From Escherichia phage Mangalyan: DNA of 64,000 nucleotides. Under the pieces are notes generated by a model. The model had not been told where the DNA came from, did not search any database, and saw nothing but the letters and a program-made list of their open reading frames with translations. A program made the translations under genes and the position numbers. The stretch lies in the sequence record OR449013. One strand, 5' to 3'. Shown here one piece after another: positions 4,342 through 27,106 of this stretch; positions within the stretch are counted from its first letter, which is position 1; each line of letters starts with the position of its first letter.

Positions 4342-5103
4342 ATGCGACGACTGATTATTATCTCCGGTGCTGGTTTGAGCGCTGAATCTGGTATTCCCAC
4401 TTTCCGATCTGGTAGCACTGCAATGTGGGAGAATTTCAGCATCGATGAGGTGTGCAACATCCACACCTTTGCCAAGAACTACTACAAGGTGCATGACTTT
4501 TACAATGCACGTCGTGTAGCTCTAGGCGGTGTTGAGCCTAACCTTGCACATCTTCGGATCGCTGAGTGGTATTCCCGCTGGTCTGGTCGTGTGATCAACC
4601 TTACCACCAATGTAGATGATTTGCTGGAGCGTGCTGGTGTAAAACATGAAGATATTTTACATGTTCACGGGTATTTGCCAGAAATAGTCTATGAGGACGA
4701 TGAAGGAAGTGACGTCATTAAGGACATTGGATACTCTGAGGTAGATGCAGGAAAGTATACCTGGGTTAAACCTAATGTGGTGTTCTTCGGAGAAGTAGCT
4801 CCGAAGTATACAGACATGTATGACCTGTTGACTTCTCTTACAAGCAATGATATGGTTATCCTTGTAGGGTGTTCCAACACAGTTATCAATTTTAACTGGG
4901 AGCTATTCCCTGCCTGCAATAAGGGCACCAAACTGCTGATCGTTAACAAATACGACTCACAGCATCTAGAGGAGAATGGCATTTCACGTAGTGATATTTA
5001 CCAGTACGAGGATCGCGGCATCCCGGTTTGGTTTAACGGGGCGGTTGACGCTTTCTCTGATAAAACATTCATTGAGACCGTAGAAAACTTTATGGAACTT
5101 TAA
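4342..5103 (+). CDS. Sir2-family protein (NAD-dependent deacylase / ADP-ribosyltransferase fold)
   Basis: canonical Sir2 NAD-binding motif GAGLSAESGIPTFR at residues 9-22, TTNVDDL, HVHGYL (catalytic His), VVFFGE; no zinc-ribbon cysteines. Confidence 0.8.
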   Translation: MRRLIIISGAGLSAESGIPTFRSGSTAMWENFSIDEVCNIHTFAKNYYKVHDFYNARRVALGGVEPNLAHLRIAEWYSRWSGRVINLTTNVDDLLERAGVKHEDILHVHGYLPEIVYEDDEGSDVIKDIGYSEVDAGKYTWVKPNVVFFGEVAPKYTDMYDLLTSLTSNDMVILVGCSNTVINFNWELFPACNKGTKLLIVNKYDSQHLEENGISRSDIYQYEDRGIPVWFNGAVDAFSDKTFIETVENFMEL

Positions 5104-5116
5104 AAGGAGACCTTTA

Positions 5117-5830
5117 ATGCTGAATACTAAACTGATCGACAACCTGGAAAAACTGTCTCAGCCTGAAAACTACCTTTGGTCTGCCAACTGGGTGGAAAAC
5201 TGGAACCGTGTGGCAGCTAAAGTGAAAAAATCATACACACCATTCGAATTACAGCTTAGCTTCATTGAGGAAGAGTTCAATGAGGTTTTGGAAGAGCTGG
5301 AGAAAGGTGATGGTGGAGATCACCTGCTAAAAGAGGCCTGCGATCTTCACGTTGTCACAAGTTATGCCGCTTATCTTGTTAATGATAATCACGAAAAGTG
5401 GTCAAACCTGTTTGATAATCCACGAGGTCTTAAGTTCAAGATCGGTGAGTTCTATGATACACTGATCGCTGCGAAAAACACATCCAAGCAAAGAGCGTCA
5501 GCTTACCGCTTAGCGGAGTTGTCAACAGCTTTGCTGTTCCAGCTTCGCGGCGATGTGTGTGGGATGATGCGGAAGGTTCTCAAATCTAATGACAGCAAGT
5601 TTGCACGGATCAACCATCTACGATATTCTCACGGTGCCAGTGCAGATATGTCTACTGAATTGCTCATAGAGTTAGAGATTGAAGATCTTGAGCGTCGTTT
5701 TGGTGGTCGCTACGAAGGTTTCGTTGCTAAAGAGGAGTTCTACAACGGTAATAAAGTTATTATATTCCTTGACAGTAAAGGTAAGATTATGAAGCCTTCG
5801 AGCTTCAAGGATGTAACAGAGTATATTTAA
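5117..5830 (+). CDS. MazG-like nucleotide pyrophosphohydrolase (tentative)
   Basis: acidic cluster EEEFNEVLEELEKGDGGDHLLKEACDLHVV resembles the all-alpha NTP-PPase E-x2-E ... E-x2-D metal-binding pattern; 237 aa. Confidence 0.45.
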   Translation: MLNTKLIDNLEKLSQPENYLWSANWVENWNRVAAKVKKSYTPFELQLSFIEEEFNEVLEELEKGDGGDHLLKEACDLHVVTSYAAYLVNDNHEKWSNLFDNPRGLKFKIGEFYDTLIAAKNTSKQRASAYRLAELSTALLFQLRGDVCGMMRKVLKSNDSKFARINHLRYSHGASADMSTELLIELEIEDLERRFGGRYEGFVAKEEFYNGNKVIIFLDSKGKIMKPSSFKDVTEYI

Positions 5831-18011: not shown

Positions 18012-18242
18012 ATGAGCCATAACTCCAAGTGGAAGGATCTTGGTTTTGCAAGTCGGGCAGAGTATGTTGGTTGGCTTTGGTTCAACGGCCTGACAAACGA
18101 TATTAAAATGTATGATGATGTTTATTATGACGAGTATACAGGTAAAATTATAAATATCTCTGTAGAAGAGGATACCTTTATCCAGCAAGATACTGATACC
18201 TGCCTTGATAAATACGTTAATGAAGTGGAGGAAGCAAATTGA
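18012..18242 (+). CDS. hypothetical protein (76 aa)
   Basis: ATG 18012 after AGGTGGTGAAG; ORF-track start 17934 would overlap upstream gene. Confidence 0.45.
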   Translation: MSHNSKWKDLGFASRAEYVGWLWFNGLTNDIKMYDDVYYDEYTGKIINISVEEDTFIQQDTDTCLDKYVNEVEEAN

Positions 18243-20554
18243 TCACCAAGGTAATTAAAAGCAACGGATGTGAGGTAGCATTCGATCCAGAACGTTTAAA
18301 TAAGGCAGCTATTTTCGGTGACGACGGTAACGGCAATTGGTCACATATTGCACTGGATGCATACAAACGACTGTATGATGGATGTACAACCAAAGAAGTT
18401 AACCAAGCTATCATAGACTCCTGTGTTAGCCGTAAAGACGAAGCACATTCCCGTATGGCTGGTCGTGTTCTTATTGGTCAGATTTATAAAGAGGCTTTTG
18501 GAGGGTTTACAAAGATCCCTTCCTTACCATCATTTTACAATACCATGGTTGAGAAAGGGTATTGGGAGGATATGGGCTATAGCTTTACCGAGCTAAACAC
18601 TTTAGACGCTGTTATTGACCACAGTAAAGATCTCGGTTATGGCTATGCAGTCCTTAAACAGTTTCGCGACAAATACGGGATCAAGGATACTCTTAAAGAC
18701 ACCTTGTTTGAATCTCCCCAGATGATGTTTATGGGGATAGCAATGGCTGTCATGAAGAATATGCCGAAAGAACGTCGTATCAACGATGTTGTAAAATTAT
18801 ACACTTATCTGTCCGACTTAAAGATCAATGCCCCGACACCGTACTTAAACGGGCTGCGCACAGGTAAGACAGGGTATGCATCTTGTTGTGTAATAAAAGC
18901 TGACGATACAGCAAAATCTATTGGTGTGGCACGTGAAGTTGCGTACACAATGACGGTTAACCAAGCAGGTATCGGCTACTATTTATCATCAAGATCTGCA
19001 GGCGATGGTGTTCGTGGTAACACTATTAAACACATGGGTAAGATTCCATATTATCGAGGTATTGATGCTGGGGTTAAGGAGAACAGACAACAATCACGTG
19101 GCGGTTCTGCAACAGTATCATTTCTTGCACTAGACCCGCAGATTGATGAGCTAATCCGTTTGAGAAACCCTATGACTGTTGCTTCAAAAAGAATCAACAC
19201 CATGGACTACTCCATCGGTATTAATAGGTCGTTTATCAACCGTGTGGCTAAGAATTTGGATTGGATGCTTGTTTCTTATAAGCACGCGCCTCAACTGCAT
19301 GAGGGTATCTTCACCATGTCTATGGAGGAGTTTGATGCAGAGGTTGATCGTATTGCTAAAGATGACAGTATTCCTAAAACATGGATCCGGGCCAGAGATC
19401 TTGCTGTTGAACTGATCACGCAGCGTACTGAGGTGGGAAGGCTGTATGTATACTGGACAGATGAGATGAATAGACATACACCTTTTAAAGATGTGATCTA
19501 TTCAAGTAACCTGTGTGCAGAAATAGCCCTCCCGACAAAAGGCTATTCAGATATGCGTAATATCTTCAAGTACGATGCTGATGATGGAGAGGTTGCATTG
19601 TGCTTCCTGTCATCTCTTGTAGCTGGGAGGGTTACTCCAGAGGAGTATGAGGATGTTGCATACTATACGGTGCTTATGATTGACAATGTTATGGAAATCA
19701 TGACATATCCGTATGAAAATATGGAAAGCACAGTTAAAAAACGCAGATCCATCGGGGTTGGCCTTACCAATGTTGCACATTTTATTGCCAGCCACAAGGT
19801 TACTTACGGATCTCCTGAAAGTAAACAGCTCGTTCACGATCTTGCAGAACTTCACAGCTACAGCTTGCATAAGGCAAGTTTACGGTTGGCAAAAGAGCGT
19901 GGTGTCTGCGAGTGGATGCATAAAACAAAATATCCAGAAGGTTGGTTACCAATCGACACCTATAACAAAGAGGTCGATAGCGTGGTGAAAGATCCTTCTC
20001 TTAAACAGGATTGGGAAGGGTTACGTAAAGAAATCATTGAAAATGGTGGGCTACGTAATAGCGTTCTTGAAGCATATATGCCTAATGAAAGCTCTTCGCT
20101 GGCAACAAACACCACTAACGGGGTCTATCCTGTCCGTGAGCACATTATCTTTAAAAAGTCGCCACAAGGGCAGGTGCTGTTTATCGTTCCTGACTATGAT
20201 GAGTTGAAAGAGTATTACACTTCGGCTTGGGACGTTGATACTAACGACATGATCGATATGTATGCTGTGATTCAAAAATTCACAGGTCAGGCAATCAGCG
20301 CGGATTTGTACATAGACTACACCAAGTTGAAAGATGGTAAAATTTCAATGAAGGAGCAGCTAGGGTACCTTATCCGTGCCACTAAATTCGGAATGAAGAC
20401 ATGGTATTATTTAAACTCTAGGGTTGGTGCTGGCGACTCCTTGGCAGAGGAACTTCATGCCAAGAAACAGGCTGAAGATGAAACCAGAAAGAACTATCCT
20501 TTGAATGCAGATAGTTCAGTTGAAGATCAGTATTGCGAAAGTTGTGCACTATAA
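18239..20554 (+). CDS. nrdA: ribonucleotide reductase class I large subunit NrdA
   Basis: N-terminal ATP-cone (VIKSNGCEVAFDPERL), active-site NLCAEIALPT, C-terminal CESCAL cysteine pair; 771 aa. Confidence 0.9.
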   Translation: MITKVIKSNGCEVAFDPERLNKAAIFGDDGNGNWSHIALDAYKRLYDGCTTKEVNQAIIDSCVSRKDEAHSRMAGRVLIGQIYKEAFGGFTKIPSLPSFYNTMVEKGYWEDMGYSFTELNTLDAVIDHSKDLGYGYAVLKQFRDKYGIKDTLKDTLFESPQMMFMGIAMAVMKNMPKERRINDVVKLYTYLSDLKINAPTPYLNGLRTGKTGYASCCVIKADDTAKSIGVAREVAYTMTVNQAGIGYYLSSRSAGDGVRGNTIKHMGKIPYYRGIDAGVKENRQQSRGGSATVSFLALDPQIDELIRLRNPMTVASKRINTMDYSIGINRSFINRVAKNLDWMLVSYKHAPQLHEGIFTMSMEEFDAEVDRIAKDDSIPKTWIRARDLAVELITQRTEVGRLYVYWTDEMNRHTPFKDVIYSSNLCAEIALPTKGYSDMRNIFKYDADDGEVALCFLSSLVAGRVTPEEYEDVAYYTVLMIDNVMEIMTYPYENMESTVKKRRSIGVGLTNVAHFIASHKVTYGSPESKQLVHDLAELHSYSLHKASLRLAKERGVCEWMHKTKYPEGWLPIDTYNKEVDSVVKDPSLKQDWEGLRKEIIENGGLRNSVLEAYMPNESSSLATNTTNGVYPVREHIIFKKSPQGQVLFIVPDYDELKEYYTSAWDVDTNDMIDMYAVIQKFTGQAISADLYIDYTKLKDGKISMKEQLGYLIRATKFGMKTWYYLNSRVGAGDSLAEELHAKKQAEDETRKNYPLNADSSVEDQYCESCAL

Positions 20555-20593: not shown

Positions 20594-21682
20594 ATGGCTG
20601 TATTTAATGCTGAGAACACCGCTCATAAAACTGGTGACTATCCGCTGTTTCTAGGACAGCAAATGGGTATGTACGACTCTATCAACAAAAAATATCCACA
20701 ACTGTTTGAACTATACAAAAAACAAAAAGAACAAGACTGGGCAGAGGATGAAGTGGATTTGTCGCAATCTATTTCAGATTTTGTAACATGCTCAAAGTCA
20801 ACTTATGACGTGATGGTGCAGACCTTGATGTGGCAATGGGAGGCTGATAGCGTTGCGGCAAGATCTATCATTTGTCTGTTTTCACCATTTATCACCAATA
20901 GTGAGCTTTTCACTCTATTGATGAAACAGTCAGAGATTGAAGTTCTTCACGCACTAACTTACTCAGAGATTGTTAGACAATGCCTCCCCAATGCCCGTGA
21001 GATTATAGAAGAGATTCAGGAAAACCAAAACGTTCTGAGCAGATCCGGCGTTATTGTCAAATACATGCAAGAGCTTGAGGTTATTGGTGCAAAATACCGA
21101 CTGGATCCTTCTAGTGTTGAAGAAGATGTTGTGCGGAAATGCATTCTTAGAGCGCTTTTTGCACTTTTAGCTCTGGAAAGTATTGAGTTTATTGCAAGTT
21201 TTGCATGCACTTTCGCAGTAGCTGAGCAGGGTATCTTTGTTCAGGTGGCGCAGCTTGTTCAAAAAATCATGCTTGACGAAATGCTACATTCGAAAGGTGA
21301 TTTTGCCATCATTGATATCCTGCTTAATGATCCCGCATGGGAGAAAAGCTTCCTTGAGATAAAAGGGGAGTTAAAAGAGATTCTTGATGAAGTACGAACC
21401 AAAGAGTACGGTTGGAGTGACTATATTTTCAGCGAAGGAAGAGCGATTATAGGTCTTAACTCACCGTTGCTTAAAGAATGGGTTGACTATAACTGCTCAC
21501 CGATTTATGATTACTACGACATCGACAAAGACTTTGTGCCGCCAACAAAGGACCCTCTACCGTTTATGCAGGTGTGGATGAAACCTTCATTGCAACAGAC
21601 GGCGAACCAAGAAATGTCGAACACTGACTACCGCGTCAACACAACTGTTAACGACGCTGAAGAAGAAATTTGGGAGTTTTAA
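20594..21682 (+). CDS. nrdB: ribonucleotide reductase class I small subunit NrdB
   Basis: SFACTFAVAE block as in E. coli NrdB (SFACSFAFAE), acidic C-terminal tail; follows nrdA. Confidence 0.85.
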   Translation: MAVFNAENTAHKTGDYPLFLGQQMGMYDSINKKYPQLFELYKKQKEQDWAEDEVDLSQSISDFVTCSKSTYDVMVQTLMWQWEADSVAARSIICLFSPFITNSELFTLLMKQSEIEVLHALTYSEIVRQCLPNAREIIEEIQENQNVLSRSGVIVKYMQELEVIGAKYRLDPSSVEEDVVRKCILRALFALLALESIEFIASFACTFAVAEQGIFVQVAQLVQKIMLDEMLHSKGDFAIIDILLNDPAWEKSFLEIKGELKEILDEVRTKEYGWSDYIFSEGRAIIGLNSPLLKEWVDYNCSPIYDYYDIDKDFVPPTKDPLPFMQVWMKPSLQQTANQEMSNTDYRVNTTVNDAEEEIWEF

Positions 21683-21685
21683 TAC

Positions 21686-21964
21686 ATGAGCTGTGAAAAA
21701 TCTTTTTTCTTTATTATTTACGGTAAAGATAACTGCCCACATTGTGTAAGAGCAAAAGAATTTGCAGTCAGTAAGGGTCTGCCTTTTGTATATAAGACAC
21801 TTGGCGAGGGTTACACAAAAGAAGAGCTTATTGAGAAGTGCAGTCCAATCGTACCCAGAACGTTGCCGCAGATCTTCTTAGAAAGTAATCTTGAAAGTGT
21901 CCATATAGGCGGTGCCGACGATTTCATCTCTTTTGTTAAGAATGGTTTTGGAGAGAAAAAGTGA
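21686..21964 (+). CDS. glutaredoxin-like redoxin (RNR electron donor)
   Basis: CPHC active-site motif near N-terminus; 92 aa; between nrdB and nrdD. Confidence 0.75.
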   Translation: MSCEKSFFFIIYGKDNCPHCVRAKEFAVSKGLPFVYKTLGEGYTKEELIEKCSPIVPRTLPQIFLESNLESVHIGGADDFISFVKNGFGEKK

Positions 21965-22821
21965 AAGTTGTAAAACGGGACGGTAGAGAAGAGGTCTATA
22001 ACGGAATTAAGGTGATCAAGGCGGCAGAGTCCGCCTTACTTGAGTCTGGACATACTGAAGAAGAAGCTTACCGGATCGCCTGCGCGGTTAATGAAGTTGT
22101 TGCTAACACTCTACCAACCGACCAGTGCACGATCTCTGTAAAAAATATCCATATCCTTGTTGAAGACGCTCTTATGGATATGGGTTTAAAATGTGCAGCC
22201 AGAGAATACATCCAGTATAGGCAGACAAGAGATAATAATAGAGAGGCAGGTGGAAAACTGCTTGCAGATATTAGTGGCTTCTTGGATCGCACTTGTGATG
22301 AATTTACAAAAGAAAACGCAAATAAGCCTACCAATCATGTACACACTCATCGTGACCTGCTTGCAGGCATCCTTAGCAAACACCTTGCATCAACACAGAT
22401 CCTGCCAGACCGTGTCTCAGAAGAGCACAATAGAGGCTTCATCCATGTGCATGATCTTGACTACTTGATCAGTCCGTTAACAAACTGTTGTTTGGTAAAT
22501 TATCCAGATATGTTGGAAAACGGATTCAACATTGGTAACGCCCATGTCAGTAAGCCGAAGTCAATAGGGGTTGCAACAACAATCCTTAGCCAAATCTCTA
22601 GTGCAGTAGCTAGTGCTCAATATGGTGGTCAGACTATGAGCCATATTGATCATTATCTGGCACAGTATGCTGAAGCGACCTATGAGAAGAACCTTAAATT
22701 TTGCCAGGAACATTGGTTGCCAGATGCTGAGACTGTTGCAATGCAAATGACAGATAAAGACGTATTTGACAGCATGCAGACTTTGCTCTATCAAATCAAT
22801 ACGTTAACTTCTGTCAACGGT
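21961..22821 (+). CDS. nrdD: anaerobic ribonucleotide reductase NrdD, exon 1
   Basis: GTG start overlapping upstream stop; ATP-cone MKVVKRDGREEVYN; reading frame hits TAA at 22822 exactly where a P1 helix and intron core begin. Confidence 0.8.
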
Positions 22822-23618
22822 TAACAAACTGGCCGTTGTAAAACTCTCCTAACCTCATAAGAGGGGTCGGTAAATCCGGCTAACGGGGAACGCTAAGGCG
22901 AAAGCTATGCCAATCCCGTGACTAGTTCTTACAGGAGTTGGAACGGTTGTAACGACTAACGAAAGGCAGAGATGCTTGACAAACATTTCTGAACCAAGTA
23001 GTGTAGGGGTTAGTTGAAATACTAACTTCGAAATGGAGAGGCTCTATGAAAAAGATCATTCTTAATGGTGAAGAATCAAACTATGTGATTGATGAGGTTG
23101 GAAACGTATACGGAAAACGTGGAATGCTACACCCAATATTGTGGGGAGGTTATGGAAAAGGTAAAAAGCATGTTAAACGCCGTTATATGTACTCTTTCAA
23201 CCACAAAGGTAAAAAGATTCGAATCCAAACCTCAAGGATTGTTGCCTTGTATTGTTTGCCGGATGTCCCAGAAGACCCTGAAAACTGGGAAGTGAATCAT
23301 AAAGATGGCAATACATTGAATGATCATCCGTCTAACCTAGAGTGGGTTTTGCCGGAAGATAATAAGAGACATGCTTTCCGAACAGGACTTTGTCCAGGTA
23401 AGTGCTATAGGAAAGTGCAGGCATACAAAGGGAAAACCTTGGTGGGTGAATATCCTTCACTCTATGCCTGTGCAAAAGCCTTAAATTTGAACGTAGGTAA
23501 CGTTCATAGGGCTATCGAAGGAAATGCCGAAGGTAAGCATCTCACAATAAAGGGTTATTATCTTATTGAAGTAGAGTAAGAGATAGTCTGGCCCTGTGGA
23601 AACACAGGGAGGAGACAG
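22822..23618 (+). mobile_element. group I intron (IA-like) interrupting nrdD, carrying an HNH homing endonuclease ORF
   Basis: P1: exon CAACGGU (22815-22821) pairs perfectly with intron GCCGUUG (22832-22838), U-G at splice site; core-like AACGGGGAAC and CAATCCCGTG; omega G at 23618 restores frame ...SVNG|QTPFITLSLGLDTS. Confidence 0.8.
23046..23579 (+). CDS. HNH homing endonuclease (intron-encoded)
   Basis: HNH_3-like EVNHKDGNTLNDHPSNLEWVLPEDNKRHA; strong RBS GGAGAGG before ATG; located inside the intron. Confidence 0.75.
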   Translation: MKKIILNGEESNYVIDEVGNVYGKRGMLHPILWGGYGKGKKHVKRRYMYSFNHKGKKIRIQTSRIVALYCLPDVPEDPENWEVNHKDGNTLNDHPSNLEWVLPEDNKRHAFRTGLCPGKCYRKVQAYKGKTLVGEYPSLYACAKALNLNVGNVHRAIEGNAEGKHLTIKGYYLIEVE

Positions 23619-24881
23619 CAGACTCCATTCATCACATTGAGTTTAGGACTGGATACCTCGGTCTTTGGTAGAATGATTACCAAAAACTACTTGAAAGTCC
23701 ACAAAATGGGTCTTGGTGAAGAACGTATTACACCTGTATTCCCTAAAGTGCTGTTCTTCCTGGAAGAGGGTGTTAACATGAACCCTGGGGATCCTAACTA
23801 TGATTTGAAACGATTAGCTCTGGAATGCTGTGCAGAACGTATCTACCCTGACTTCGTATCTGTACCACTAAATAGAAAAGTGACAGGCTCGACAGATGGC
23901 AAAGTAACGAGCATGGGTTGCCGGAGTTTTCTTAGCAAATATAATGACTTGGAAACAGGTGAGGAAAAATACCTTGGCAGATTCAACTTGGGTGTTGTTA
24001 GCCTTAACCTGCCAATGATTGCGGCAAAAGCTAAGACGGAAGGTGTTGATTTCTTTGCAGTTCTTGACGAATACTTGGATCTTGCATACGAGGCTCACCT
24101 TGTAAGGGTTAACCGTCTAAAAGGAACAAAGGCAGGGCAGAACCCCATCATGTGGTGTGAAGGCGCTCTTGCTCGCCTGGATCCTGAAGAAAGTATTGAT
24201 AAACTCTTCTATGACGGGTACGCTTCCATCAGCATTGGGTATATTGGTGTGTATGAAACCTGTCAGATTTTGGGCAGAGAGGGTGACAAGGCTTTAGCTC
24301 TTGGAATCCTTCAGCACATGAGAGATGCTTGTGAGCGATACAAGAAGGAAAGTAGACTAGCGTTTAGCTTGTACGGCACCCCTTCTGAGAGTCTATGCTA
24401 TAAAGCTGCAACCTGTCTGGATCGTGAATATCCTGAAGTGTTGAAGCACGAGCATGAATATCTCACCAACAGTTTCCATCAGCCAGTATGGATCAATAGC
24501 TCTCCTTTTGATAAGTGGGCGTATGAGGAAGGTTTTGCTATGATCTCCTCTGGTGGCAACATCGGATATGTAGAGACACCGAATCTGAAAAACAACTTAG
24601 ATGCTTTAGAGGCTCTTGTTGACTTCGGGTATAAACACATTATGTATTTTGGTATTAACCAACCTGTGGATAAATGTCTCAAGTGTGGTTTCTCTGGGGA
24701 GTTCAGTGCAACAGCTAAAGGCTTTGTATGCCCAGAGTGTGGAAACCATGAAGAGGGAACGATCAGTGTGATCAGACGTGTGTCTGGATACCTTTCCAGT
24801 CCTAACTCCCGTCCTTATAATAAAGGTAAGCAAGCGGAAGTTATCGAGCGAGTTAAGCACTATGGAAGTTGTAGTTGCTGA
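23619..24881 (+). CDS. nrdD: anaerobic ribonucleotide reductase NrdD, exon 2
   Basis: glycyl-radical motif RRVSGYL near C-terminus, zinc ribbon CLKCG ... CPECG; frame open from 23580; 5' boundary set by inferred 3' splice site. Confidence 0.8.
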   Translation, partial: QTPFITLSLGLDTSVFGRMITKNYLKVHKMGLGEERITPVFPKVLFFLEEGVNMNPGDPNYDLKRLALECCAERIYPDFVSVPLNRKVTGSTDGKVTSMGCRSFLSKYNDLETGEEKYLGRFNLGVVSLNLPMIAAKAKTEGVDFFAVLDEYLDLAYEAHLVRVNRLKGTKAGQNPIMWCEGALARLDPEESIDKLFYDGYASISIGYIGVYETCQILGREGDKALALGILQHMRDACERYKKESRLAFSLYGTPSESLCYKAATCLDREYPEVLKHEHEYLTNSFHQPVWINSSPFDKWAYEEGFAMISSGGNIGYVETPNLKNNLDALEALVDFGYKHIMYFGINQPVDKCLKCGFSGEFSATAKGFVCPECGNHEEGTISVIRRVSGYLSSPNSRPYNKGKQAEVIERVKHYGSCSC

Positions 24882-24945
24882 TACTTGACAAAAGCCACAA
24901 GGATGTGGCACCATACAGATGTTTAGGGAAGTTAGGAAACAAGAG

Positions 24946-26079
24946 ATGGCTAAATTATCGACAGAAGAGTTTATAGAGAAGGCGAAAATCATTCACGGTT
25001 ATAAATACAATTACAAGAAAACAGTGTACGTGGATTGCTATGCGAAGGTTTGCATTACCTGTCAAATCCATGGAGATTTTATGCAAGCACCTTGTCAACA
25101 CTTGCAAGGTCGTGGTTGTCCTTTTTGTGCAAAACTTTCTCGTGCTACAAAGTGTAATAAAGGTCTTAAATTTGTAGAAAGAGCCAAAGAAATCCATGGA
25201 GATAACTATGACTACTCTCTCGTATACTACAAGACTTGCAAAGATAAAGTAGAAATAATCTGCAATACTTGTGGAAATCACTTTACACAGACACCTGACA
25301 ATCATATAAATTTGAAAAGAGGTTGTCCAGTTTGCAAGGGGTCAAGAATCTCACAAAGCAAAACCAAACCTCATGAAAAGTGGGTTGAGGACATAGAGAA
25401 GAAAAATACTTATATTGAAATATTAGAAGAGATCACCACTGGGTGGAATAAAGTATTATGTCGTTGCAAAGTTTGCAACCACGAATGGTCAGCTACGCCT
25501 GTTATCCTTAAGCGTGGTCACGGCTGCCCCGGATGTGGCGGATCTATGAAAAAGACCACTGAAGAGTTTATCCAGGACGCTGTGGCTATCCACGGGAACA
25601 AGTATGATTACTCTAAAGTGAGGTATGTGAATTCACACATCAAGGTTACAATTGTTTGCACAGATCATGGAGATTTCTGTCAATCCCCTACCCAGCATTT
25701 AGGAGGGGGAGGGTGTCCTAAATGCACCAAAAGAGGATTTTTATCCCACGATTGTGGTAAACTTTACATTATGGTTGATGATCCGGAAGTGCCTACATTT
25801 ATGAAAATAGGTGTCAGTCATAATGAAAGTAAGCGAAGAGACCAGATACTTAAAAGTGCACAAAGATCTGGAGCTGGTATCTGCGATCTGTACATAGTGA
25901 AAACGTTGGAAGGATCAACTGAAAACATGCTGGCTGTAGAAAAATCTATGCACAAAGCCTTCAGTAAATATAAAATAAACTTCCCTGTAAAATTTGATGG
26001 TAGCACCGAATTCTTCTACTACAGGCCTGAGGTGTTCAGCACAGTGGAAGCAGCGTACAAAGAGATCTGCGGTAAATGA
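24946..26079 (+). CDS. GIY-YIG-like (T5orf172-type) domain protein with four N-terminal zinc-ribbon repeats; putative free-standing homing endonuclease
   Basis: four repeats of H-G-x-x-Y-x-Y ... I-x-C ... HG-x-F ... GCP-x-C; C-terminal LYIMVDDPEVPTFMKIGVS ... RR ... E resembles GIY-(10)-YIG spacing. Confidence 0.6.
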   Translation: MAKLSTEEFIEKAKIIHGYKYNYKKTVYVDCYAKVCITCQIHGDFMQAPCQHLQGRGCPFCAKLSRATKCNKGLKFVERAKEIHGDNYDYSLVYYKTCKDKVEIICNTCGNHFTQTPDNHINLKRGCPVCKGSRISQSKTKPHEKWVEDIEKKNTYIEILEEITTGWNKVLCRCKVCNHEWSATPVILKRGHGCPGCGGSMKKTTEEFIQDAVAIHGNKYDYSKVRYVNSHIKVTIVCTDHGDFCQSPTQHLGGGGCPKCTKRGFLSHDCGKLYIMVDDPEVPTFMKIGVSHNESKRRDQILKSAQRSGAGICDLYIVKTLEGSTENMLAVEKSMHKAFSKYKINFPVKFDGSTEFFYYRPEVFSTVEAAYKEICGK

Positions 26080-26399: not shown

Positions 26400-26636
26400 A
26401 TGGTAGGTGTCTGTGTAAAAGCTAACAGATGGTTTACATTCGGCAAGGATTACGAAATTATCTTTCATTCGGACAGAGCCACAACAGTAGAAAGCGATGA
26501 TGGGTGCTACTGGTTCGTTAGTTACCAGGGTGATGGGTATTATAGATCTACTGATTCCAGAGGGGAAGAAGCTGTTTTCTTAGATAGAGCTTATTGTGGG
26601 CCTGAATATCCCTACCTCAAAGAGGGTAAGGAATGA
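26400..26636 (+). CDS. hypothetical protein (78 aa)
   Basis: ATG after AGAGAGG; overlaps nrdG start by 4 nt. Confidence 0.5.
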   Translation: MVGVCVKANRWFTFGKDYEIIFHSDRATTVESDDGCYWFVSYQGDGYYRSTDSRGEEAVFLDRAYCGPEYPYLKEGKE

Positions 26637-27106
26637 ATGTTGTTAATATTATAGAGTGTAGCATGGTTGACGGCCCAGGCATTAGGACAACGGTGTTCTG
26701 TTCTGGTTGTCCACATCACTGCGTTGGTTGCCAAAACAAAAGTGTTTGGTCACCCGCTAAAGGGGAACCGTTAACAAATGACACAATTGAGAGTATACTT
26801 CACTCTATAGAGCCGAAACATATTACTGGCGTTACATTATGCGGTGGCGAACCTTTAGCGCCTTACAATATCGATGGTATGTACTCGATCATTCTCGCTA
26901 TCCGTGAACGCTTCGGCAACACAAAAACTATCTGGGTGTACACAGGGTATTTGTTTGAAGAAGTCCCAGGTTATATTAAAGATAGTGTCGATTACATTAT
27001 GGATGGTAAGTACGAAAAAGATAACCCCACCAAAAAACCATTCAGAGGTAGTGATAACCAAAGAATGTTTAAAAAAGTATCAGGCGGTTGGGTTCAGGTA
27101 GACTAG
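26633..27106 (+). CDS. nrdG: anaerobic ribonucleotide reductase activating protein NrdG (radical SAM)
   Basis: Cys cluster FCSGCPHHCVGCQN (C-x3-C-x2-C) near N-terminus, GGEP motif; 157 aa. Confidence 0.85.
   Translation: MNVVNIIECSMVDGPGIRTTVFCSGCPHHCVGCQNKSVWSPAKGEPLTNDTIESILHSIEPKHITGVTLCGGEPLAPYNIDGMYSIILAIRERFGNTKTIWVYTGYLFEEVPGYIKDSVDYIMDGKYEKDNPTKKPFRGSDNQRMFKKVSGGWVQVD

Follow-up and report, generated by a model that had tools for sequence, protein, structure and literature searches.

The anaerobic ribonucleotide reductase gene nrdD of Escherichia phage Mangalyan (sequence record OR449013), a Vequintavirus (rV5-like) coliphage, is interrupted by 797 nt within one of its conserved motifs, raising the question of whether the two halves form one gene joined at the RNA level, two separate genes, or a gene that has been inactivated. 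In the window, the whole 64,000-nt stretch of DNA that was analysed, the first half ends in ...TSVNG, with GGT at 22819-22821 followed by an in-frame TAA at 22822-22824, and the frame is picked up again at 23619 as QTPFITLSLGLDTS, leaving a gap that spans 22822-23618. The stop after ...TSVNG, the downstream resumption, the length of the gap and the G at 23618 that precedes the second half in frame, all of which had been described in the original prediction, were checked in the sequence and agree with it. On the evidence set out below, it is highly probable that 22822-23618 represents a mobile, T4-td-like IA2-type group I intron in a Vequintavirus nrdD gene, with the splicing and homing mechanism proposed here. 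The gene-level features are as follows.

21961-22821, plus strand: nrdD exon 1, 287 codons, with a GTG start that overlaps the glutaredoxin stop (ORF list)
22822-23618, plus strand: predicted group I intron, 797 nt, beginning with UAA (the in-frame stop of exon 1) and ending in a terminal G
23046-23579, plus strand: intron ORF of 177 aa, predicted I-HmuI-like HNH homing endonuclease, constituting the P8 loop
23619-24881, plus strand: nrdD exon 2, 420 codons plus stop, glycyl-radical domain and Zn ribbon

The interrupted gene and its empty counterparts

Exon 1 comprises an ATP-cone (Pfam match over its residues 1-91) and the N-terminal part of NrdD, corresponding to positions 1-154 of the Pfam NRDD profile; the match restarts at position 156 in exon 2, where it extends to position 562 and is accompanied by a Gly_radical match. 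When joined, the exons form an ORF of 707 codons that aligns without gaps to Pfam NRDD and to T4 NrdD, the T4 alignment spanning the exon junction, and the insertion point separates the Gly codon of the conserved NGQTPF motif from the Gln codon that follows it. An intein or a frameshift was ruled out, since the reading frame meets a TAA and the 224 nt at the 5' end of the insert are non-coding.

Sister phages provide the corresponding empty site. Intronless Vequintavirus alleles (MaxTheCat, A6-1, ECP26) lack exactly 797 nt, and their junction (slash at the insertion point) reads TCTGTCAACGGG/CAAACTCCATTC, differing from the interrupted allele by the 797 nt plus two flanking wobble bases. Immediately around the site, the intronless alleles carry ...AACGGG/CAAACT..., the wider sequence in MaxTheCat being ...TCTGTCAACGGGCAAACTCCATTC..., and a synthetic spliced junction aligns in one piece to many Vequintavirus genomes with up to 98.5% identity. 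The alignment with intronless NrdD homologues, originally proposed as a check on the joined protein, bears out the prediction at both the protein and the DNA level.

The intron ORF and its distribution

The ORF at 23046-23579 had been described as an HNH endonuclease in the 3' part of the intron; the HNH assignment holds (Pfam HNH_3, 29.3 bits against a cutoff of 24.8), while the position can be refined to the loop of P8. It also matches PHROG 59 HNH endonuclease (E = 9e-27), reaches 18.4 bits with the C-terminal Pfam I-HmuI_NUMOD-like profile, which is below the cutoff of 27, and aligns over residues 8-160 with PDB 1U3E (I-HmuI), a weak match at E = 2.6e-4. I-HmuI, the product of a phage group I intron, nicks DNA and combines an N-terminal DNA-binding domain, an HNH motif and a C-terminal NUMOD-like or helix-turn-helix domain. 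In Bacillus phage SPO1, that intron resides in the DNA-polymerase gene, a different host gene in a different phage lineage; its 174-aa enzyme and the 177-aa Mangalyan product align over nearly their whole length, including the HNH motif and the C-terminal NUMOD-like region, at about 25-30% identity only. The His and Asn residues of the HNH motif that align with I-HmuI are kept (NHKDGN 84-89, NLEW 97-100, EDNKRH 104-109). This resemblance along the full length argues for an HNH homing endonuclease. The next-best phage homologues align over only part of the sequence and with no more than 31-50% identity, and the phage collection therefore offers no obvious donor of the ORF module; no sigma-70-like site that could serve as an internal promoter for the ORF was found inside the intron.

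Among 120 matching records, the intron with its ORF occurs in 27 and an ORF-less intron in 14, while about 79 have neither at the site. The 27 phage records hold the 797-nt intron at 97-100% identity, and examples include Escherichia phage WalterGehring (MZ501111), FFH2, FV3 and slur16, in which it occupies the same nrdD site with 97-99.9% nucleotide identity over 797 nt. Where the exons of two phages are about 91-99% identical, their introns show 99.0-99.9% identity, a pattern expected for recent endonuclease-driven spread.

The ORF-less intron, 257 nt long and found at the same nrdD site in RudolfGeigy, AlexBoehm, nom, bov10K2 and the IMG/VR sequence L012, is 86-87% identical to the longer intron across its initial 139 nt, from P1 through the 5' strand of P7, and resembles it again in the final ~40 nt, from J8/7 onwards. 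Its middle (P7.1, P7.2, P3' and P8) contains no ORF and cannot be aligned, the hairpins equivalent to P7.1 and P7.2 being unrelated in sequence, which implies that it is not a simple deletion derivative of the longer intron. It retains P3 through a compensatory C-G to G-C change and sits in a locally divergent exon tract, where exon divergence peaks next to the intron at 12 differences in 60 nt, the background being about 1; the ORF-less allele thus carries a co-conversion tract. As far as genome comparison can tell, the population data are compatible with homing.

An alternative, judged distinctly unlikely, is that the intron splices while its HNH ORF no longer drives its spread, so that the patchy distribution reflects recombination during co-infection or an endonuclease acting in trans. 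The co-conversion tract around an intron that lacks an ORF, in 14 records, means that movement without a resident ORF has happened, the genomes hold other candidate homing endonucleases (such as ORF 24919-26079 in Mangalyan), and the likeness to I-HmuI is weak; set against these points are the better conservation of the intron relative to its exons, the retained His and Asn positions, and an ORF that is unbroken in all 27 copies at 98-99% protein identity, although these copies are too alike to reveal purifying selection.

The predicted ribozyme and its splice sites

A covariance-model search, suggested in the original prediction, did not come out in its favour: with the Rfam group I model RF00028 (Intron_gpI), whose gathering score is 50 bits, the whole window gave no match at the gathering threshold. 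With relaxed filters the intron scores 27.7 bits (E = 7.7e-5), in an alignment whose 5' half is misplaced inside the ORF and is unreliable there and whose best-aligned portion is the S element region, while the T4 nrdD intron, taken as a positive control, reaches 105.3 bits. The ORF-less relative is also below the threshold (29.8 bits, E = 3e-4) and aligns over its full length, with P1, P4-P6, P7, P8 and P9 placed as in the manual model and the P3 5' strand alone differing. Plausibly, the 534-nt ORF in P8 and a two-hairpin insertion reduce the Rfam score. Because the score is sub-threshold, support for a group I ribozyme is drawn instead from comparative structure, for which the following elements were identified.

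22815-22838, plus strand: P1 hairpin, exon CAACGGU (22815-21) pairing with guide GCCGUUG (22832-38), 7 bp
22844-22849, plus strand: P3 5' strand CUCUCC, partner GGAGAG at 23035-40
22853-22881, plus strand: hpA and hpB, extra hairpins between P3 and J3/4 (MFE fold; consensus fold with covariation)
22883-22919, plus strand: P4, P5 and P5a (MFE and consensus folds)
22922-22941, plus strand: P6 hairpin CUAGUUCU-UACA-GGAGUUGG (MFE and consensus folds)
22952-22958, plus strand: P7 5' strand A(C)GACUA with C22953 bulged, R element GUAACGACUAAC, complementary to UAGUCU at 23584-89
22965-95, plus strand: P7.1, GG-CAGAGAUG ... CAUUUCUG-AA-CC (MFE fold)
23006-29, plus strand: P7.2, GGGGUUAGU-UGAAAU-ACUAACUUC (MFE fold)
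23035-23041, plus strand: P3 3' strand GGAGAG, which with G23041 gives GGAGAGG, the predicted Shine-Dalgarno of the HNH ORF
23042-23047, plus strand: P8 5' strand CUCUAU, partner GUAGAG at 23571-76
23571-76, plus strand: P8 3' strand GUAGAG, pairing with 23042-23047
23577-83, plus strand: J8/7 UAAGAGA, including the ORF stop codon
23584-89, plus strand: P7 3' strand UAGUCU; J8/7 and P7 together give the S element AAGAGAUAGUC
23592-23609, plus strand: P9 hairpin CCCUGUG-GAAA-CACAGGG (Rfam alignment and MFE fold)
23618, plus strand: terminal G (omega-G), 3' splice site, kept in the ORF-less variant

The conserved parts of a group I core (P3-P8 with the P3/P7 pseudoknot, P4-P6, the R and S elements and a bulged P7) were all found. 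The ORF-deleted RNA folds with a z-score of -5.1 relative to 200 shuffles, its MFE fold independently yields P1, P3, P4-P6, P7.1, P7.2, P8 and P9, and the manual core model agrees with both the MFE fold and a consensus fold of the intron with three relatives, in which 95% of cells are paired. Compensatory (double) changes affect 22 of the 60 predicted pairs, compared with 7.9 +/- 2.1 in shuffles (none of 500 reaching 22) and at most 6 pairs when the pairing partners are slid. Relative to the ORF-less 257-nt intron, such changes occur in P1, P3, P6, P8 and P9, and their presence between lineages, including in the exon-guide helix P1, points to selection for folding. The evidence therefore supports the view that nrdD is split by a group I intron bearing an HNH homing-endonuclease ORF: the U at position -1 faces a G in P1 and the intron terminates in G, as the splice-site rules require, the td-like core is complete and covaries, and the 797 nt are precisely missing in sister phages.

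At the 5' end, the pairing proposed in the original prediction is confirmed: CAACGGU (22815-22821) is perfectly complementary to 22832-22838, with a U22821·G22832 wobble at the splice site that recurs in all relatives examined. P1 covaries, a C-G pair being replaced by A-U in both RudolfGeigy and L012 and the strands reading GGAGGU/GCCUCC in L009, and a P10 is possible between loop CUG (22829-31) and exon 2 CAG (23619-21), for which L009 has AUG/CAU. The strands of P3 were read by eye, RNAduplex applied to long 5' and 3' segments having given uninterpretable global duplexes. They covary as CUCUGC/GCAGGG in RudolfGeigy and CUCUGC/GCAGAG in L012, with equivalent pairs in more distant family members (L009, L010, L020, L028, L024). 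The different P3 that Rfam places in the ORF-less relative, which pairs the hpB 3' strand with CGCAGGG, was rejected because CUCUCC/GGAGAG and its equivalents hold in every lineage examined; the window's intron lacks the alternative pairing.

Between P3 and J3/4 lie two additional hairpins, hpA (CCUC-AUAA-GAGG, 22853-64) and hpB (GGUCGG-UAAAU-CCGGCU, 22865-81), which are missing from the T4 td and T4 nrdD introns. The same arrangement, with different sequences, exists in many IMG/VR phage introns and is absent from others, so it is a variant architecture, though not unique to this intron. The hairpins were rejected as P2/P2.1, since in relatives such as L022 and L028 both of them coexist with a distinct P2 located upstream of P3, and a literature search turned up no published designation for hairpins in the P3-P4 interval. 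Further downstream, P4 (ACGGGG/UCCCGU), P5 (GC/GC) and P5a (GGC-GAAA-GCU) are followed by P6, which shows compensatory and wobble changes relative to the ORF-less variant. P5 covaries across the family (GC/GC, CC/GG, UC/GA), and its internal loop GCUAAG...UAUGC resembles the 11-nt GAAA-tetraloop receptor. The core-like segments originally noted as reminiscent of T4 introns, AACGGGGAAC at 22882-22891 and CAATCCCGTG at 22911-22920, indeed occur verbatim in the T4 td intron.

The GACUA/UAGUC pairing of P7 is invariant, and its support comes from td homology (AACGACUA in T4 td) and from the Rfam alignment, which places the same motif as P7 in the ORF-less relative, rather than from covariation. 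P7.1 and P7.2 are a peripheral pair typical of subgroup IA and define the T4-td-type IA2. Here they lie between the P7 5' strand and the P3 3' strand, as in IA2, and a GUAGGG...CGAAA(U/C) motif before P3' is common to this intron, T4 td and the ORF-less variant; the P3 5' strand is not followed directly by J3/4 and P4, the hairpins at 22853-81 intervening. The P8 5' strand closes with the first two bases, A and U, of the ORF start codon, and 7 nt separate the AUG at 23046 from the end of GGAG; in the ORF-less variant an unrelated P8 (GUCUGA/UCAGGC) occupies the same place. The S element is the sole exact match to AAGAKATAGTC in the window, and core-motif searches of the whole 64,000 nt found no second intron of the same type. 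P9 carries a compensatory C-G to U-A change in the ORF-less variant, and its GAAA loop (L9) is likely to partner the receptor-like motif of P5.

The covarying helices also bear on whether the insert might be dead or non-splicing, with nrdD either inactivated or expressed as two separate polypeptides that assemble, which is considered very improbable. In Aeromonas phage Aeh1, nrdA is described as split by mobE, with two polypeptides that assemble, and split yet functional ribonucleotide reductase genes do exist in phages (PMC3653736; PMC7344957). The sub-threshold Rfam score would suit a degenerate insert, and aerobic laboratory culture probably does not require nrdD, which could allow an insertion that fails to splice to survive for some time. 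However, exon 2 lacks a plausible start of its own (a TTG at 23637 comes first among its start codons and is not preceded by a purine-rich Shine-Dalgarno), the split falls within the NGQTPF motif, both exons remain open and conserved in every carrier, and the compensatory changes extend to the exon-guide helix. A shift of both boundaries by one base (...AACGG / TTAAC...GACA / GCAGACT) also reproduces the intronless DNA, with one fewer substitution. Because position -1 is occupied by T and the intron closes with G, the alignment with intronless alleles (AACGGGCAAACT) fits both placements. The shifted version can safely be set aside, since its 5' splice site would have G instead of U and its intron would terminate in A instead of G, in violation of both group I rules, and U22821 faces G22832 in this intron and in all relatives examined.

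Proposed mechanism and relation to known introns

For a spliced and mobile intron, the anatomy, together with the facts at the DNA level, suggests the following course of events. In the pre-mRNA, exon end CAACGGU and guide GCCGUUG would form P1, and an external guanosine bound in P7 would attack after U22821. G23618 would then fill the G site while a short P10 (CUG/CAG) holds exon 2, and ligation would produce AACGGU/CAGACU and restore the 707-codon NrdD, the intron being presumed to self-splice. Ribosomes translating exon 1 would halt at UAA, the first three intron bases. The I-HmuI-like HNH endonuclease would be translated from the P8 loop. With its Shine-Dalgarno coinciding with the 3' strand of P3 and its AUG positioned in P8, the start is expected to be masked once the ribozyme has folded, so that splicing and translation should be in competition. 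In a mixed infection, the enzyme may nick or cut intronless nrdD near ...AACGGG/CAAACT..., and repair off the intron-bearing copy would spread the intron along with flanking exon sequence.

A wider and more speculative proposal, which seems doubtful at present, is that such introns might constitute a structurally distinct, widespread td-like subclass, characterized by the P3-J3/4 hairpins, a GAAA L9 facing a receptor-like P5 and low Rfam scores (28-30 bits for the Mangalyan intron and its ORF-less relative). In the Mangalyan member, ribozyme folding and endonuclease translation would be mutually exclusive, which would provide it with a built-in switch between splicing and homing-enzyme expression.

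The T4 nrdD (sunY) intron, of group IA, shares the host gene and the conserved stretch, starts with UAA, resembles the Mangalyan intron in its P4 and Q elements and likewise has no P2; guide, UAAAA and then P3 read GUAAAAUCUGCC in T4 and GUAAAACUCUCC in Mangalyan. Nevertheless, the two are different introns: that of T4 is 1033 nt long and its enzyme, I-TevII, is of the GIY-YIG type and encoded 3' of the core, whereas the 797-nt Mangalyan intron has an HNH ORF in the P8 loop, in line with the original suggestion of a different endonuclease. The comparison of insertion points that was called for places the T4 site 32 nt upstream, after the first base of the Tyr180 codon (AYE-Y-EV), the Mangalyan site lying between the codons equivalent to T4 Gly190 and Gln191. 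The T4 td intron (IA2, I-TevI) has decamers AACGGGGAAC and CAAUCCCGUG identical to those of Mangalyan and shares AACGACUA as a P7 strand, AGAUAUAGUCU as J8/7 plus P7, and a GUAGGG...CGAAAC P7.2 motif with P3' directly after it. It differs in residing in another gene, in having a P2, in a P3 that adjoins J3/4, and in a GIY-YIG ORF located between the P6 region and P7 instead of in P8.

The element itself is not new, being already annotated as an intron in GenBank BASEL records. The WalterGehring nrdD CDS is a two-part join whose length implies the removal of exactly 797 nt, with the inner ORF annotated as 'putative homing endonuclease', and the RudolfGeigy record joins its nrdD CDS across 257 nt; intron boundaries in BASEL phages were set through comparative genomics (PMC8594841). 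The rV5 paper mentions only terminase introns, and a literature search found no paper describing the structure or splicing of the 797-nt nrdD intron. Most other GenBank records list two separate nrdD fragments without a join, plus a 'hypothetical protein', in place of one spliced gene, and a standard Rfam scan will not flag the intron. While the understanding of how group I introns work is unchanged, the intron with endonuclease, the ORF-less intron and the empty site offer a compact natural series for the study of homing in a therapeutically used phage group. Some relatives carry a second intron at the catalytic Cys codon of nrdD, and across coliphages, T4 included, three different intron sites occur within about 330 codons of this gene.

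Insertion site and boundaries of the intron

The nrdD gene of phage Mangalyan occupies two pieces between the glutaredoxin gene and nrdG, in a region that shares 98.6% identity with Escherichia phage WalterGehring and 94-98% with many further Vequintavirus (rV5-like) myophages:

18239-20554, nrdA
20594-21682, nrdB
21686-21964, glutaredoxin
21961-22821 and 23619-24881, nrdD exons 1 and 2
26633-27106, nrdG

The coordinates of the original prediction all proved exact when checked in the sequence: exon 1 ends in ...TSVNG (GGT, 22819-21) followed by TAA, the reading frame restarts at 23619 with QTPFITLSLG, giving a gap of 797 nt, and the terminal G at 23618 lies immediately 5' of exon 2. Exon 1 follows the Pfam NRDD profile up to position 154 and exon 2 takes it up at 156, and the joined protein aligns gaplessly over the junction with T4 NrdD (NTLTSVNGQTPFITLSLG in the window, NTLFSSNGQTPFVTITFG in T4). 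When the spliced junction was assembled in silico (200 + 200 nt) and searched against phage genomes, it aligned in a single piece to many Vequintavirus genomes, with identity of up to 98.5%. In three intronless genomes fetched for junction reading (MaxTheCat, A6-1 and ECP26), TCTGTCAACGGG is directly followed by CAAACTCCATTC, whereas the window reads TCTGTCAACGGT, 797 nt, CAGACTCCATTC; the alleles thus differ by exactly 797 nt and two wobble bases flanking the site. The 5' change (GGG to GGT) provides the U required at a group I 5' splice site, and the 3' change (CAA to CAG) extends a possible P10 (CUG 22829-31 with CAG 23619-21). Boundaries one base to the left, equally compatible with the DNA alignment alone, were rejected because they would break the U(-1) rule as well as the terminal-G rule.

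The last intron and first exon 2 bases (23611-23626) contain a possible 4-bp stem spanning the 3' splice site (GGAG...CUCC). Its counterpart is GGGG...CCCC in a shorter, ORF-less intron (257 nt) that some relatives have at this site, with a synonymous change in a Thr codon of the exon, and UAAUG/CAUUA in a distant ORF-less intron from IMG/VR (L009). Judged from sequence, this stem could be a chance pairing or a splice-site helix.

In T4, the nrdD intron (1033 nt) splits the Tyr180 codon behind its first base (GCT TAT GAG T/...G/AT GAA GTG), and joining there reproduces the 605-aa T4 protein. Since the homologous Tyr codon in the window lies at 22789-91, the comparison called for by the original prediction places the window intron 32 nt downstream of the T4 site, between the codons that correspond to T4 Gly190 and Gln191. 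The endonucleases differ as well, as had been anticipated: the T4 intron encodes I-TevII, a GIY-YIG enzyme, 3' of the ribozyme core, whereas the window ORF is of the HNH type. The two are different introns with one conserved stretch as their common target.

In BASEL-collection GenBank records, nrdD is a two-part join, spanning 2708 nt in WalterGehring and 2168 nt in RudolfGeigy against 1911 nt in intronless MaxTheCat, lengths implying that exactly 797 and 257 nt are removed, respectively. According to the BASEL paper, intron boundaries in that collection were set by comparative genomics (PMC8594841). In other records the ORF bears the name 'H-N-H homing endonuclease', and a literature search found no paper on the structure of the nrdD intron or testing its splicing. 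Overall, the finding is correct and rests on good evidence; it is of an ordinary kind, and existing records already annotate it. For nrdD to include the ATP-cone domain (Pfam, E = 2.8e-14), translation must begin at GTG 21961, overlapping the glutaredoxin stop; the BASEL start, an internal ATG equivalent to 22174, would leave it out.

Ribozyme structure and the embedded reading frame

The structural model comprises the following elements:

P1, CAACGGU 22815-21 / GCCGUUG 22832-38, U22821 opposite G22832
P2, absent, likewise in T4 nrdD
P3, CUCUCC 22844-49 / GGAGAG 23035-40
Two extra hairpins, 22853-64 and 22865-81
P4, ACGGGG 22883-88 / UCCCGU 22914-19
P5, GC/GC, internal loop GCUAAG...UAUGC
P5a, GAAA loop
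P6, 22922-29 / 22934-41
P7, A(C)GACUA 22952-58 / UAGUCU 23584-89, bulge C22953
P7.1, 22965-95
P7.2, 23006-29
P8, CUCUAU 23042-47 / GUAGAG 23571-76
J8/7 (between P8 and P7), UAAGAGA
P9, CCCUGUG-GAAA-CACAGGG 23592-609
Terminal G, 23618

The perfect P1 pairing originally described, with U22821 facing G22832, is present, and both decamers singled out as td/nrdD-type core segments are found unaltered in the T4 td intron. Also common to the td and window introns are AACGACUA, the GUAGGG...CGAAAC-P3' arrangement and AGAUAUAGUCU. The P5 internal loop closely resembles the classical GAAA-tetraloop receptor of 11 nt. The minimum-energy fold of the ORF-deleted RNA contains P1, P3, both extra hairpins, P4/P5/P5a, P6, P7.1, P7.2, P8 and P9 (z = -5.1; 0/200 shuffles as good). 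A consensus fold of the window intron, the ORF-less variants of RudolfGeigy and an IMG/VR locus (L012), and L009, which lies in an unrelated gene, recovered the same helices with 95% of cells paired. Two-sided changes occur in 22 of 60 pairs against 7.9 +/- 2.1 in shuffles (none of 500 as high) and no more than 6 pairs in a slid-partner control, statistics that come from only four sequences and a structure derived from the same four. Compensation includes C-G to A-U in P1, where the altered exon codon stays synonymous (GTC to GTA), C-G to G-C in P3 and C-G to U-A in P9. In distant family members, P3 pairs as CACGGUG/CGCCGUG, AUACCUUU/AAGGGUAU, UAACGUG/CGCGUUA, UUCUGUG/CGCAGAA and CGUG(U)GUG/CGCCACG, each immediately 5' of P8.

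An alternative in which nrdD is a split gene with a non-splicing insert is unlikely, because exon 2 has no credible start (the first candidate, TTG 23637, lacks a Shine-Dalgarno sequence), the break falls within NGQTPF and selection for pairing is apparent in the helices.

Of the checks proposed, the covariance-model search is the one that fell short: Rfam RF00028 gave no match in the window at the gathering score. With relaxed filters, the intron scored 27.7 bits (E = 7.7e-5), with J8/7-P7-P9 well placed and the 5' half forced into the ORF; the ORF-less relative aligned over its full length (29.8 bits), its helices agreeing with the window model except for the P3 5' strand, and the T4 nrdD control reached 105.3 bits. 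The shortfall likely stems from the 534-nt ORF in P8 and the two hairpins between P3 and J3/4. In an IMG/VR pattern scan that returned 26 loci, the two-hairpin arrangement recurred in many phage introns with freely covarying stems, so it represents a subclass trait rather than a defect of this copy; in related introns L024, L018, L029 and L031, P3 adjoins J3/4, as in T4. A literature search found no published name for the arrangement, and we do not claim that it is undescribed. L009 (IMGVR_UViG_3300022661_000062, reverse strand, ~2490-2760) is a compact ORF-less member of the subclass (~270 nt) interrupting a gene unrelated to nrdD (...PSKWTSGG/HYCVLWKDDGKTIYVNDP...); like the nrdD intron, it begins at its 5' end with UAACAAAAUGG, and covariation is seen in its P10 (AUG/CAU).

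The predicted HNH ORF (23046-23579) is upheld by an above-cutoff Pfam HNH_3 match, and its 177-aa product matches PHROG 59 (HNH endonuclease; E = 9e-27). Residues 8-160 align with I-HmuI (PDB 1U3E, 174 aa; E = 2.6e-4), an HNH enzyme encoded by an intron of Bacillus phage SPO1. A C-terminal I-HmuI NUMOD-like match is sub-threshold. Conceivably, the intron splices and the endonuclease is inactive. The ORF constitutes the P8 loop: the P8 5' strand ends in the A and U of its AUG, the P8 3' strand is its final two sense codons, its UAA stop begins J8/7, and the P3 3' strand is its Shine-Dalgarno sequence (GGAGAGG). On this model, the folded ribozyme would hide the ORF start site, and splicing and ORF translation would compete. 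No sigma-70-like promoter was found inside the intron.

Distribution and possible mobility

Among 120 records matching the gene, 27 carry the intron with its ORF, 14 the 257-nt ORF-less intron and ~79 neither at this site. Near-identical ORF copies occur only within these 27 introns, and the best phage homologues beyond them are 31-50% identical over partial lengths. The evidence on mobility is indirect. The intron is 99.9% identical to that of WalterGehring and 99.3% to that of JEP1, against 97.2% and 90.9% for exon 2; BLAST figures imply 92.6-96.4% for exons against 97.1-99.5% for the intron in five further phages. Around the ORF-less intron (~-80 to +40), exon differences from intronless phages rise from ~1 to 12 per 60 nt, a pattern characteristic of co-conversion from a divergent donor. 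Over P1 through the P7 5' strand, the ORF-less intron shares 86-87% identity with the window intron; it is similar again beginning at J8/7, and its P3 is kept through compensatory change; its origin as a deletion derivative was rejected, its P7.1, P7.2, P3' and P8 being unrelated. Some 19-23 records under the name 'Campylobacter phage' (host C. jejuni; MG065655, MG065644, MG065690 and others) match E. coli Vequintavirus nrdD and its introns at 93-97% identity, and their naming or host assignment looks doubtful.

A probable second intron and the neighbouring endonuclease slot

JEP1, phita32 and 'Campylobacter phage C2' appear to carry a second nrdD intron, characterised here in JEP1, and it may accompany the ORF-less intron in navn, A135 and 241Ecol014PP. 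Two features are relevant:

JEP1 (L003) 4959-5720, second nrdD intron, td-like group I, 762 nt, own HNH ORF
Window 24919-26079, + strand, 386-aa ORF between nrdD and nrdG

The JEP1 HNH ORF is 29% identical to that of the window intron, and the intron likewise scores below the Rfam threshold (32.9 bits). It lies between the Gly and Cys codons of SMG/CRSF (T4 PMGCRSF), the Cys presumably being the active-site cysteine; the window lacks it, its empty equivalent site falling between 23918 and 23919.

The 386-aa ORF combines DUF4379 treble-clef zinc-finger repeats with a T5orf172 domain at the C terminus. It matches PHROG 681 'endonuclease' (E = 4e-73) and looks like a free-standing homing endonuclease; mobC occupies the equivalent gap in T4. 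The slot is variable: WalterGehring has a 993-nt ORF annotated 'putative homing endonuclease' and JEP1 one of 936 nt, RudolfGeigy has no ORF of that size, and MaxTheCat has only short hypothetical ORFs within the fetched stretch. Just 5' of the slot, near the glycyl-radical end of nrdD (window ~24710-24830, exon nt ~1950-2070), RudolfGeigy carries 18-21 substitutions per 60 nt relative to the window and MaxTheCat, against a background of ~1, and this stretch may be another gene-conversion tract.
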